In this document: piece after piece, positions 3,873 through 29,506 of the stretch
Layout: each line of letters starts with the position of its first letter
Numbering within the stretch: position 1 is the stretch's first letter
Source: a virus
Strand: one strand, 5' to 3'
IMG/VR virus record: IMGVR_UViG_3300045988_175865
Span: 60,001-92,000 of that record
DNA length: 32,000 nucleotides
Notes under the pieces: model-generated
The model's database searches: none
Told to the model about the DNA's origin: nothing
What the model saw: the letters and a program-made list of their open reading frames with translations, nothing else
Made by a program: the position numbers and the translations under genes

Positions 3873-4219
3873 TATTCCCAAGGTAAAATTTTCTGAGTTA
3901 TTCTTTTATAGTTATTTAATATTCCTAAGATGTTTGCTCGACCTACAGGATTTGCAGATTGACTTGCAAACTGTGGAAGGACATATCCTTCATCTATACA
4001 TTTATCTACAATATACTTGGCTATATCGTATCCAGATTTTTCCTCTCCTAAATCATGATCGAGACAAATTGCATAAGGTCATTCTTTTTCAAGGAAGTCA
4101 ATAGCTTCTTGATAAGACTGAGCCCATACAACTTTACAATTTCTGCCAATTGGACTAAAATTCATCCAATCATCTTCCATTGGATTACGAGCATCATCTA
4201 TCCAAAAAAGTGTTTTCAT
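3872..4219 (-). CDS. receiver-like domain protein (cyclic-phosphate-processing receiver type), 115 aa, one in-frame TGA
   Basis: Manual code-4 translation MKTLFWIDDARNP...EKE(TGA=W)PYAICLDHDLGEEKSGYDIAKYIV...; TGA at 4079-4081; missed by the standard-code ORF track. Confidence 0.7.
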
Positions 4220-4221
4220 AA

Positions 4222-4467
4222 TCATCTAATTCTTAAATGAGAAAGTAAATTAAAAACTATTAATATAATACAAGCCATAGTTGGAATAAAGTTTAAAGGA
4301 GTCCAAATGAGTATTATAAAGACAAAGCTACTAATATATTTATCCTCAGTATAGTATAAATACATATCTCCTAGAGTAGTTCCTTCTTTAGATTTTATCC
4401 TCCAATAAACGTAGAGAATAATATGATTAATAATTATACATACAAACCAGCAATATACAAATTCCAT
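4222..4467 (-). CDS. small membrane protein, paralog family B
   Basis: ORF track 81 aa; C-terminal half aligns with 5995..6402; apparent stop is TGA, giving 8 more codons under code 4. Confidence 0.6.
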   Translation of the reverse strand: MEFVYCWFVCIIINHIILYVYWRIKSKEGTTLGDMYLYYTEDKYISSFVFIILIWTPLNFIPTMACIILIVFNLLSHLRIR

Positions 4468-10699: not shown

Positions 10700-10717
10700 A
10701 AGTTAAAAAGATTTTTG

Positions 10718-11138
10718 TGTGCCTGATGAGAATTGAACTCATGTCCATTCAACTATTAATAATAATTTTATTTACATGCTAGGTTATTTTATTCTCCTAT
10801 TCCGAAAAATAACAAAACGTATCAGATAGTTTTTATCTTATCTCCTACAACTTATCTGAAATAACTCGGTTCTATAATAGTAGTTAGTAATGATTAACTT
10901 ACATCATCTGCATTAATCTATACAGAAAATCTTTGTCTATTATTTCTCCAGACTTGGATAGCTTAAGCTGCAAAAGCTACTTGAGCACGCATAGGAGTTG
11001 CAAGAGGCATAACCTTGTTAGCCATCTTACGTACAGTGTTCTTAGCGTTTATTTTTTGGTCCAGTTGTTAAAGAAGTTATACCAGCTCCTGCATGAATTG
11101 TTATCAACTATCTTGAATGTCAAAAACCTGGCAGGCCC
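10718..11138 (-). ncRNA. ssrA: tmRNA-like RNA (ssrA-like), 421 nt, tag ANKVMPLATPMRAQVAFAA
   Basis: 5' GGGCCUG-CC-AGGUUUUUGAC-AUUCAA and 3' UUGAAU-GGAC-AUGAG-UUCAAUU-CUCAU-CAGGCAC-A reproduce the tmRNA tRNA-like domain layout; internal frame 11022..10963 ends GCU UUU GCA GCU UAA (E. coli: GCU UUA GCA GCU UAA). Confidence 0.75.
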
Positions 11139-25443: not shown

Positions 25444-25473
25444 TAAAAAAGAGACTGCCTCTGCTCAGTCTCT
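25444..25473 (-). terminator. intrinsic terminator
   Basis: Minus sense AGAGACTG-AGCAGAGG-CAGTCTCT followed by TTTTTTAATA. Confidence 0.7.
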
Positions 25474-25625: not shown

Positions 25626-25790
25626 TTATTCAAGGAATGATGCTCCAGCAGCGATAGCATAAGATATTACAGTACTTACTACAGGTGAATATCCTAATAC
25701 TTCTGCACCACCGAATGCAAAAGCAGCGAGGAGAGTACCCCAGAAGATAGTACTAAATAGTCTTTCAGAAAAAGAACCTTTATTTTCCAT
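25626..25790 (-). CDS. small membrane protein, 54 aa
   Basis: Manual translation MENKGSFSERLFSTIFWGTLLAAFAFGGAEVLGYSPVVSTVISYAIAAGASFLE. Confidence 0.5.
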   Translation of the reverse strand: MENKGSFSERLFSTIFWGTLLAAFAFGGAEVLGYSPVVSTVISYAIAAGASFLE

Positions 25791-25976
25791 TTAGTTGAAT
25801 AACTTTTTGGATATAGAATTCGTTGTTTTTAGTTGCTTTGATTACGTAGAAAGCGAGTTTATTGTGTATTCAGCCTCTTCAGTTGTATACTACATAATCG
25901 CCGCAATTGGTAGTTAAGATGTTAAAAGGGAGTTTTCACTCCCCTTTAACAGTTAACTGGCCGTTACGAGCAGGTT

Positions 25977-26459
25977 TTAGGCTTTCCATACGAGGTTAGC
26001 CGTTTCCTTCTCGGTGGTGGTATCGAGAGGCAGCCCGTTGTCGAAGTCCCGTTGCTTGAACTTGACGGTTCCCTGAGCTACGATCGTCTTACCGAGGCAA
26101 GCTTCGAGGCGATCATAGTCGGTTTCGAGATTGCAGAGGTCAGCAGATACAGGATGAACGGGCTGCATATCTGCGTCACGACGGCGGAGGTTTGCCAACG
26201 AGAAGTTAGCCAGCTTGCCGTTCTTGAGGCCCATGACGAGCACTTCGACGTTCTTGGAGTCTTTCCGCACCTGACGGGTAGTGATTACGGCGTCTTCAAG
26301 AGTGTCAGGGAATTCAAAGACATCGCCATTGGAAAGGCCATAGCTGACGAGGCCGATACCAGTGCTCTTCAGAAAGTCTACTGCGACCTGCTTTACTTCG
26401 AGGCCGTTTCGAGTAGGAATAATAGGAAACTCTTCCTTCTTGAATTGATTAATCTTCAT
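25977..26459 (-). CDS. hypothetical protein, 160 aa, encoded in a GC-rich island
   Basis: ORF track; two 60-nt lines counted by hand give 57% and 53% GC against AT-rich flanks; no family recognised. Confidence 0.7.
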   Translation of the reverse strand: MKINQFKKEEFPIIPTRNGLEVKQVAVDFLKSTGIGLVSYGLSNGDVFEFPDTLEDAVITTRQVRKDSKNVEVLVMGLKNGKLANFSLANLRRRDADMQPVHPVSADLCNLETDYDRLEACLGKTIVAQGTVKFKQRDFDNGLPLDTTTEKETANLVWKA

Positions 26460-26515
26460 AGTATAAATATTTAATTAATTGTTATAAATCTCGACATTTG
26501 TTGTCGTAATAATTT

Positions 26516-26563
26516 GTTGGAAGCTTTTGTTTATGTTCTTCCTAGTTATTAGTTGGAAGCTTT
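26516..26563. repeat. direct repeat GTTGGAAGCTTT x2
   Basis: Copies at 26516-26527 and 26552-26563. Confidence 0.7.
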
Positions 26564-26638
26564 GGTAAATGTTAGTTGTTTTGGTTTACATTGATTTCAA
26601 ATAAAAACAGTTTGAGGGCAGTTCGAAGAACTGGGCTA

Positions 26639-28763: not shown

Positions 28764-29207
28764 TTACTCCTCTATCTCAATGAGGCTATACTCTTCACTA
28801 ACCCTCTTATAACCAGAAGATTTCTTGAGTATAACCATATCCCAACCCTGTTTCTTAAGGGCTAGTAATGCTAACTCGAAGGAAGGCAGACGTTGTACCT
28901 TCTTTTCAACCTTAACTCTGCTCTTAACGTCTTTCGTGTAAGTACGATATACTTCGGTTAGCAATGCAGGGTTAGGTGCACATTTTGACGTATTCCAGTA
29001 GCACTTCTGCTGAGCACGTTCTCCTTCAATAATAATCTGTTGCATTTCTGCAAGAATATTACGAACTTTCATGAGAACGTTGGCAGATGTGTTGCAATCT
29101 GCAGCAAGTTTATTGACATTTTTCTGGTCAATTTTAGCCTTGCTATAGTTACGGTAGATACCGTCAATGATAATGCCAATCTCAGGCATTGTGTAAATCT
29201 TAGCCAT
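28764..29207 (-). CDS. hypothetical protein, 147 aa
   Basis: ORF track. Confidence 0.6.
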   Translation of the reverse strand: MAKIYTMPEIGIIIDGIYRNYSKAKIDQKNVNKLAADCNTSANVLMKVRNILAEMQQIIIEGERAQQKCYWNTSKCAPNPALLTEVYRTYTKDVKSRVKVEKKVQRLPSFELALLALKKQGWDMVILKKSSGYKRVSEEYSLIEIEE

Positions 29208-29436: not shown

Positions 29437-29506
29437 GACTCCACGTTTTTTGAAATTATCCTACAGATATGTTTAAAGCTTTGATTACTAGAGAATAAAG
29501 TTATCC

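Follow-up and report, generated by a model that had tools for sequence, protein, structure and literature searches.

A conserved GC-rich orphan gene in an AT-rich, opal-recoded gut phage carries a codon signature suggestive of host-tRNA adaptation

The stretch of DNA studied here, referred to as the window, comprises 32,000 nucleotides (nt), bases 60001-92000 of the IMG/VR virus record IMGVR_UViG_3300045988_175865, and contains on its minus strand a gene for a 160-amino-acid (aa) protein (25977..26459) whose GC content stands far above that of its flanks. The best explanation of our results is that this gene is a member of a conserved early or accessory cluster in opal-recoded crAss-like phages of the human gut. 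From the genomes compared, its GC island is likely to be the footprint of strong and continuing codon selection on a host-tRNA-adapted, high-expression and probably early cassette. A preceding reading of the window, made from the sequence only, had left two possibilities: that the gene was acquired recently from a donor of higher GC, or that it is under an unusual selective constraint. The former is contradicted by the GC excess in relatives and by saturated synonymous sites, and the latter finds support, in the more specific form of selection acting on codons, of the tRNA-adaptation type.

Results

The 160-aa gene is the compositional extreme of the genome

The record is 148,631 bp long and 88% complete, with a GC content of 30.1% overall and 31.6% in the window. 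Sliding windows of 200 nt reach 50.5-56% GC within 25900-26400, and the flanks lie at 21-39%. At a width of 400 nt, the segment 26001-26400 has 54% GC and is the maximum of the genome (runner-up 44.5%, mean 30.1%, standard deviation 4.0%). The gene itself has 51.3% GC, contains no TGA and encodes its single Trp with TGG. When 129 non-overlapping open reading frames (ORFs) of at least 100 aa were ranked, with TGA read as sense, it came first for GC (z 6.0), for GC at first codon positions (GC1, z 3.5) and for GC at third positions (GC3, 0.61 vs 0.196±0.061, z 8.7), and merely 31st for second positions (GC2). Since the excess sits at GC3 and GC1, with little at GC2, it is mostly synonymous; a lesser part is due to an amino-acid makeup rich in Gly, Ala, Val, Asp, Glu and Arg. 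Both approaches bear out the claim of a high-GC gene inside an AT-rich genome, and the 160-aa ORF and an antisense ORF at 26052..26474 were both found as the earlier description had given them.

Codon usage departs from that of the phage and avoids the codons of its own tRNAs

The codon usage of the 160-aa family, pooled, was compared with that of the rest of the phage genome. In two-fold boxes the family takes C in place of T, with TTC used for 82% of Phe (genome 16%), GAC for 57% of Asp (15%) and AAC for 56% of Asn (18%), and AAG accounts for 66% of Lys (28%). Elsewhere CGT, GGT/GGC, CTC, CCT and ACY are favoured: CGT encodes 50% of Arg (15%), GGT and GGC together 91% of Gly (41%), CTC 50% of Leu (3%) and ATC 55% of Ile (8%). 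Use of TTA, CTA, AGA, ATA, GGA, ACA, GGG and CCG is near zero, as seen in TTA and CTA together (0% of Leu, genome 65%), AGA (3% of Arg, 61%), ATA (2% of Ile, 36%) and GGG (1% of Gly, 10%). The G-ending codons GGG, CCG, GCG and AGG remain rare in the family. At four-fold sites the counts of A/C/G/T are 82/188/80/247 in the family and 4964/780/750/6225 in the genome, so that C rises five-fold and G about two-fold, A collapses, and T is still the commonest base (41%). Over all third positions, the frequency of A falls from 0.36 to 0.14-0.16. A pattern of this kind would be expected of tRNA-based codon choice, rather than of a mutational GC shift, biased gene conversion or simple AU avoidance.

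ARAGORN finds 11 tRNAs and one tmRNA in the record, all of them inside the window, and seven of the tRNAs have a U34 anticodon, reading the A-ending codons TTA, CTA, AGA, TCA, ACA, GCA and CAA. The cognate codons of these U34 tRNAs make up 8.5% of the relevant codons in the 160-aa gene vs 46.9±9.2% in the other ORFs (rank 1/129, z -4.2). The fraction of C-ending codons (NNC) is 0.62 vs 0.165±0.068 (rank 1/129, z 6.7). The codon-usage analysis that had been proposed as a check therefore places the gene at the extreme of its genome on GC3, on NNC and on avoidance of phage-tRNA codons. Next on both codon indices come a virion structural protein and the first gene of the cluster described below (28764-29207), and the index therefore behaves as a proxy for expression; this suggests that it tracks expression level in this phage. 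The 160-aa gene surpasses the structural protein widely. Its relative synonymous codon usage correlates at -0.11 with that of the phage's own genes and at +0.36 with that of ordinary genes of one Bacteroidota-like contig.

The composition is kept in relatives through complete synonymous turnover

A word-indexed search yielded 13 homologues of the 160-aa protein (42-96% identity), and a profile search 145 homologue clusters at 50% identity (E ≤ 1e-3), almost all of them stand-alone proteins of about 160 aa. All come from metagenome or virome contigs. In each close lineage whose DNA was examined the gene has 48-56% GC and a GC3 of 0.43-0.64; the surrounding loci have 29-40% GC, the top values stemming from short contigs in which the 160-aa gene itself weighs in, and the other ORFs there average a GC3 of 0.22-0.27. 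The GC excess and a shared gene cluster persist in homologues down to 38-52% identity. The cluster runs from a 147-150-aa gene through small ORFs to the 160-aa gene, an abutting 66-69-aa ORF and a 53-55-aa membrane protein.

Between lineages, the proportion of synonymous differences (pS) in the 160-aa gene is 0.57-0.80, which is saturated, and dN/dS is 0.06-0.39 (0.06-0.27 for most pairs); to judge from these comparisons, the 160-aa protein in the sense frame is under purifying selection. As synonymous sites are saturated and GC3 is still 0.43-0.64, a foreign composition would have decayed unless it were selected. The GC-ending codons thus appear to be actively maintained through complete synonymous turnover. 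Two features of codon-adapted genes are found together here, namely a bias that is specific to codons and one that is kept across lineages despite synonymous turnover.

Neither two scans of 185,579 representative bacterial genomes, which were pattern-limited and give a weak negative, nor a tblastn search against 50,697 phage records returned a homologue, and no paralogue of the gene was found within the same genome. The phyletic search called for by the sequence-only reading accordingly places the close homologues in AT-rich phage contigs, with none in the bacterial genomes scanned. That reading had also held that a shared high GC in related AT-rich phages, coupled with a clear conserved core function, would speak against acquisition; the shared high GC is present, but no clear core function was found.

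Distant members with 22-29% identity exist outside the phage group of the window. One, on a Bacteroidota-like chromosomal contig of 44% GC, has 42% GC and a GC3 of 0.39 and is not GC-enriched. Another, on an AT-rich phage-like contig and beside a gene for an HTH_36 protein, has a GC3 of 0.33 vs 0.12-0.14 in its neighbours. Being unenriched on the host-like contig and enriched on the AT-rich one, the gene has a host-like composition in both settings; a gene of this family keeps such a composition wherever it is located. At L081 1102-1560 and L082 2-391, distant members seem to have tandem paralogues, to judge by a motif resemblance seen by eye. The member at L080 624-1088 lies at the edge of a Bacteroidota-like chromosomal contig, beside a weak match to sigma-70 region 2 and a TonB-dependent receptor.

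The protein is a predicted folded orphan

Two AlphaFold2 models, built from 13 and 20 sequences, are concordant, with predicted local distance difference test scores of 89.9 and 91.3 and predicted template modelling scores of 0.84-0.85. In the predicted fold, short elements at the N terminus precede three strands (59-87) and three short helices (88-121), and residues 125-158 form a long beta-hairpin at the C terminus. Invariant residues include G45, F48-E-F-P51, R62, V64, G77-x-K-N-G81, N90-L-R-R93, P100-V-H102, C121 and G123, and the isoelectric point is 5.7-7.8.

Searches of Pfam, PHROGs, NCBIfam and PADLOC with the 160-aa protein and 92 family members gave no family hit, in line with the earlier statement that no family could be recognised. 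PADLOC likewise had no match for the 160-, 69-, 54- and 147-aa proteins of the cluster or for two distant members, and a sequence-profile search of the PDB with the 160-aa protein returned nothing. Foldseek against the PDB gave nothing significant for either model (best E 0.48 and 0.73, TM ≤ 0.27), and against BFVD its sole match was A0A8S5RA49, an uncharacterised gut-virome protein. Among fusion proteins of the wider family, one marginal member (E 9e-4) joins a phospholipase D-like nuclease to leucine-rich repeats and is uninformative. Structure prediction and profile searches, which had been suggested for this gene, therefore give a confident fold with no named relative, and the gene is a real, conserved and, as modelled, folded 160-aa orphan.

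Over 6.3 kb the window is 99.7% identical to a Logan contig (L009, homologue at 3921-4403), with 19 differences. Seven of them fall in the 483-nt gene (binomial P 3e-4), and all seven are nonsynonymous, with no synonymous change; they affect positions 37, 38, 44, 109, 112, 139 and 141. Other alleles in the 198-member 90% cluster vary chiefly at 10, 38-44, 99, 106-112 and 143. These seven changes, from one lineage and a single Logan contig, may hint at host interaction or diversifying selection. A diversity-generating retroelement as their source was rejected on inspection, as the changes are not A-specific and are scattered over the gene.

A structured leader precedes the gene in all lineages

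The leader or promoter region of the gene (26492..26586, minus strand, as are all elements that follow here) is conserved across lineages. In the window it consists of box 1, ACCAAAAC (26578-26586), box 2, CCAAAGC-TTCC-AACTAAT (26548-26565), a middle segment (26535-26544), box 3, AAAAGC-TTCC-AACAAAT (26512-26528), and hairpin 2, CGACA-ACAAA-TGTCG (26492-26506), after which about 32 nt of AT-rich sequence lead to the ATG at 26459. The whole leader, of about 130 nt with repeated CAAAGC boxes, is kept in all lineages despite the synonymous saturation of the gene itself.

Hairpin 1 is formed by the middle segment and box 3, and the former always complements the variable core of the latter: the pairs observed are GGAAG/CTTCC, GGAAGC/GCTTCC, GACGC/GCGTC, GAGG/CCTC, GGGGG/CCCCC, GGAG/CTCC and GGGAG/CTCCC. 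In a MAFFT alignment, 82.7% of cells in hairpins 1 and 2 are paired vs 31-41% in slid controls, and none of 500 shuffles attains the observed pairing, covariation score or number of doubly changed cells. RNAalifold gives the same two hairpins, and G-U pairs are on the sense strand. The sole 'broken' row of hairpin 1 is a one-column misalignment of L001, and an alternative pairing of box 2 with the middle segment is less well supported.

The extended leader motif occurs once in the genome, and the leader was therefore rejected as a general promoter consensus. In scans of viral and metagenome sequences it was found solely upstream of family genes, the other hits being unrelated tandem repeats, and the metagenome scan added no new lineage. 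The region may be a promoter, a 5' untranslated region or both.

The gene had been described as lying next to an iteron region. It does adjoin iterons in the window, but the leader is also present in loci without the HTH_36 gene, and the two GTTGGAAGCTTT repeats (26512-26586) therefore belong to the 160-aa gene as part of its leader; what was called the iteron region is an origin in part only. The HTH_36 gene is absent at this position in L001, L004 and L019-L021, and adjacency to an origin is not a conserved property of the close members of the family.

A recoded ORF and a conserved hairpin abut the gene

A 13-bp hairpin with a GAAA tetraloop (25921..25950, minus strand) lies 27-56 nt past the stop codon of the 160-aa gene. 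All cells are paired (100%) in 11 lineages, the observed values were attained by 0/500 shuffles, compensatory changes occur at two pairs, and G-U pairs are found on the sense strand only. CCCUUUUAAC closes its 3' arm, and AUCUUAAC comes next; the T-run is weak and a consensus scan made no terminator call. The hairpin may act as a terminator or as a 3' stabiliser. It is directly followed by a second, weaker hairpin (25896-25917, minus strand), with 76% of cells paired and some compensatory changes.

Both hairpins are encoded within a 69-aa ORF (25780..25989, minus strand) that exists only if TGA is read as Trp (translation table 4), with three TGA codons at W18, W37 and W40. The first 13 nt of this ORF lie within the end of the 160-aa gene, and across lineages the corresponding 66-69-aa ORF begins 1 or 13 nt inside that end (an apparent GTG start in L004 was seen by eye only) and has conserved residues in all related lineages. 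The GAAA hairpin is encoded as ...TVKG-x-W-K-x-PFNI... and the second hairpin by a ...TNCG(D/E)Y... stretch; the compensatory stem changes of the former alter its two x residues together, as Ala(GCG)/Arg(CGC), Glu(GAG)/Leu(CTC) or Thr(ACG)/Arg(CGT). The first Trp, W18, is a TGA at the apex of the hairpin in 11/11 lineages, and at the second and third Trp positions some lineages have TGA and others TGG. This alternation is direct evidence, from the comparison of lineages, for the decoding of TGA as Trp even in this 'early' region.

The last gene of the unit encodes a hydrophobic, predicted membrane protein of 54 aa (25626..25790, minus strand), which had no match in Pfam, PHROGs, NCBIfam or PADLOC; ORFs of 53-55 aa stand at the matching position in homologous loci. 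The three-gene unit is closed by an intrinsic-terminator-like site (25450..25473, minus strand) with an 8-bp stem, an 8-nt loop and then TTTTTAATAT, a stronger terminator candidate than the GAAA hairpin. The sequence-only reading had noted a terminator-like hairpin at about 25922-25950 and a short leftward unit with the 54-aa protein. The hairpin is real and conserved, but it lies inside the 69-aa ORF that had been missed and has a weak T-run; both genes do share a unit, but the 69-aa ORF lies between them.

The antisense frame is a by-product of codon avoidance

The in-register antisense frame (26052..26474, plus strand) is open in six of the eight homologues examined and is broken in L011 and L012, each with two TCA codons. 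Stops in this frame arise solely from sense TTA, CTA and TCA, and TTA and CTA together account for 0 of 117 Leu codons, hence the open frame. An antisense gene was rejected given the breaks in L011 and L012, the saturated synonymous sites and the lack of any second constraint seen, and the ORF is spurious, as had been supposed. An explanation at the RNA level was rejected too, since Rfam has no match within the gene and its mRNA folds no better than shuffled controls (z -0.60). Inside the coding region, ALTERNATIVES fail.

Genomic setting and other features of the locus

The TerL of the phage has about 30% identity to those of cr-series crAss-like phages of Bacteroidota, many of its structural genes need TGA to be read as Trp, and related contigs of 120-172 kb come from human-gut metagenomes. 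This fits a large crAss-like phage of the Zeta or Epsilon group (cf. PMC7886860), large groups described in that study. The Zeta group includes opal-recoded phages of 30-33% GC with many tRNAs (PMC12386605). No opal-suppressor tRNA-Trp(UCA) was detected across the 148.6-kb record, despite the clear use of TGA as Trp. Rfam adds two tRNA-like genes on the minus strand that ARAGORN missed (23801-23905 and 23537-23665; 34.7 and 32.8 bits), each with insertions of 30-57 nt and with anticodons that are not assignable. The tmRNA (10715-11138, minus strand; Rfam 50 bits) lies among the tRNA genes, and ARAGORN gives its tag peptide as AKNTVRKMANKVMPLATPMRAQVAFAA; a phage-encoded tmRNA is notable given the reassignment of a stop codon in the same phage.

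The conserved first gene of the cluster encodes 147 aa (28764..29207, minus strand) and is second of 129 both for GC3 (0.415) and for NNC (0.43). It matched no family, in PADLOC or elsewhere. In L015 and L019-L021 it has homologues (GC3 0.39-0.50) upstream of the 160-aa gene, and similarly placed ORFs of 149-150 aa in L001 and L004 (GC3 0.33-0.39) were matched to it by position alone. Motifs of the CAAAGC type occur 260-480 nt upstream of it, at 29471 and 29684 (minus strand).

A virion structural protein of 299 aa that is encoded elsewhere in the record (G000 142563-143462; phrog_1623/11320) has an NNC of 0.42 and 17% phage-tRNA codons, and its neighbours share the direction of this bias, more weakly than the 160-aa gene. 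Sister phages carry Pistol self-cleaving ribozymes of 61-64 bits (L019 15265-15334 and L001 11941-12011). The one in L019 begins in the last codons of a 110-aa ORF (L019 14942-15274) whose GC3 of 0.74 makes it another extreme codon outlier; the genome of the window has no counterpart to the ribozyme or to this ORF.

Discussion

Under the explanation that we favour, the cassette would yield a discrete and stable mRNA, which would be translated very efficiently by the tRNA pool of the host. Translation would take place before, or independently of, the phage tRNAs and the decoding of TGA as Trp, and the 160-aa protein would be needed very quickly or in very large, stoichiometric amounts. Several observations weigh against this explanation. 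The correlation of +0.36 with Bacteroidota-like codon usage is modest, and the contig used is unrelated and may not reflect the host of the phage. GCA and GTA are not avoided in the family, and no Bacteroidota -7 box (TAnnTTTG) is found upstream on the coding strand. The abutting downstream ORF needs TGA to be read as Trp, so the cluster overall is not 'pre-recoding'. Selection on mRNA stability through AU avoidance could, in addition, add to the signal or mimic part of it.

This last point can be taken further, to a selection for mRNA survival or nuclease escape that has removed AU-rich sites (of the RNase E/Y type or those of toxin endoribonucleases) or AT-rich motifs targeted by defence systems. 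A-ending codons are indeed the most depleted class, the 5' and 3' hairpins that bracket the mRNA are of a transcript-stabilising kind, and the same alternative has been weighed for the GC-rich leading regions of plasmids (PMC13478746). We nevertheless think it improbable as the main cause, given that T-ending codons are still the commonest at four-fold sites and that the rarity of GGG, CCG, GCG and AGG fits tRNA-based choice better than plain AU avoidance. Far less credible is a recent horizontal acquisition in which the GC content is the unameliorated signature of a higher-GC donor. Such an origin would account for the gene being the strongest compositional outlier of the genome, and the distant member on a Bacteroidota-like contig makes an ancient host or mobile-element origin of the family possible. 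Yet all related lineages examined share the high GC, together with synteny and leader; GC3 stays high, against a background of about 0.2, despite synonymous saturation between lineages; the bias is codon-specific, unlike a uniform donor composition; the bacterial genomes covered by the two pattern-limited scans have no homologue; and no mobility genes or repeats lie beside the gene. The reading of recent acquisition is thus largely refuted already.

An equally remote chance is given to a nucleic-acid-level function that forces GC within the coding region, be it a structured RNA, a 140-aa antisense gene or a DNA element tied to the origin. The antisense frame that is fully open in most homologues examined, the conserved RNA structures directly up- and downstream, and the proximity to iterons and a replication-initiator-like HTH_36 gene are what would be expected of it. 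Within the gene, however, synonymous sites are saturated and no sequence-specific constraint is seen, Rfam matches and stable folding are lacking, avoidance of TTA, CTA and TCA fully explains the antisense frame (broken in two lineages), and both the HTH_36 gene and the iterons are absent at this position in the five lineages named above.

As to function, the leading guesses, which we hold to be about equal, are an abundant nucleic-acid-binding or replication accessory protein and an early host-takeover or anti-defence protein. A more specific proposal, which competes solely with this functional part of the explanation, is that the protein is a phage single-stranded DNA-binding protein (SSB) or another abundant replication protein, with the leader as an autoregulatory operator in the style of T4 gene 32. 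The 148.6-kb record has no canonical SSB (PF00436), the order of strands beta1-3, helices and a long beta4-beta5 hairpin loosely recalls an oligonucleotide/oligosaccharide-binding (OB) fold, and basic residues are conserved (R62, R65, NLRRRD). An HTH_36/DnaD_N-like initiator adjoins the gene in the window, in L007, in L009 and in the 24%-identical L082, and a signature of very high expression would suit an SSB. We regard the proposal as unlikely all the same: the OB-like TPP1 hits have a TM of 0.24-0.27 and a probability of at most 0.10, with no fold match in the PDB; 92 members have no Pfam or PHROG hit to SSBs; the C-terminal hairpin is basic in most lineages and acidic or neutral in the clade of the window; and in a record that is 88% complete an SSB may sit elsewhere. 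Membership in any SSB family is not supported by the profile and fold searches.

A more speculative idea, which we put forward as a long shot, concerns the GAAA hairpin with its TGA apex. It may be a sensor of the genetic-code switch of the phage, that is, a recoding-dependent attenuator of a new kind attached to a hyper-expressed orphan protein of new fold. As long as TGA is not yet read as Trp, ribosomes that arrive from the 160-aa gene by coupling would halt at the apex TGA; the hairpin would then fold again and terminate or shield a short monocistronic mRNA of very high abundance. With opal suppression under way, read-through would keep the hairpin melted and turn on both downstream products, the small recoded protein and the membrane protein of 54 aa. 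The co-varying leader hairpins would be part of the same regulatory arrangement.

The crAss-like phages of the Zeta and Epsilon groups rank among the most abundant human-gut viruses, and we know of almost no early or accessory gene in them with an assigned role. Judging by its codon signature, the 160-aa gene is probably expressed more strongly or more urgently than any other gene of this phage, and the conservation of this signature makes the gene a rational first target for studies of expression, structure and interactions. More generally, an extreme GC island in a phage can arise by translational selection rather than by horizontal transfer, which calls for caution when transfer is inferred from composition. 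The contrast between codons that depend on phage tRNAs and those that depend on host tRNAs could help to tell early genes from late ones in recoded phages that have not been cultured. The conserved leader and the TGA-capped hairpin are candidate new regulatory RNA elements tied to stop-codon recoding.

Several known systems show parts of this picture. Codon usage differs between the early and the late genes of phages (PMC5683454). Conjugative plasmids have leading regions with high GC and adapted codons, in which the codon adaptation index is highest for anti-restriction genes (PMC13478746). As in those cases, for which the accepted interpretation is selection for rapid expression, a gene of an early or accessory region appears to have been shifted here to codons that are efficient in the host, against the mutational bias of the element that carries it. 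Unlike in plasmid leading regions, the shift concerns essentially one gene, reaches an extreme level (GC3 z 8.7) and occurs in a phage genome with tRNAs of its own and a reassigned stop codon.

T4 gp32 and phi29 p6 are highly expressed phage nucleic-acid-binding proteins with autoregulated leaders. The 160-aa protein resembles them in being small, non-structural and presumably needed in very large amounts, in having a structured, conserved 5' leader that an A/U-rich stretch separates from the start codon, and in lying near replication functions in some lineages of the family. It differs from them in having no sequence or fold similarity to OB-fold SSBs or to p6.

In gut phages, stop-codon recoding has been proposed to time the late or lytic genes (bioRxiv 10.1101/2021.08.26.457843; PMC7886860; PMC12386605). 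In agreement with this, TGA encodes Trp in many structural and lysis genes here, and the 160-aa gene is readable in the standard code while the abutting ORF is not. What sets the present locus apart is that the recoded ORF starts within the end of the standard-code gene and has its first TGA at the apex of a conserved hairpin, an arrangement of which no description was found in these three sources.

Leaders of the trp-operon type are ribosome-dependent transcription attenuators, in which a short ORF decodes particular codons across a terminator-like hairpin. A short ORF also runs across a terminator-like hairpin in this phage, and here too the key codons specify Trp. The differences are that the hairpin has no clear U-tract, that no alternative antiterminator pairing was identified, and that the 'leader' is itself a conserved protein of 66-69 aa.

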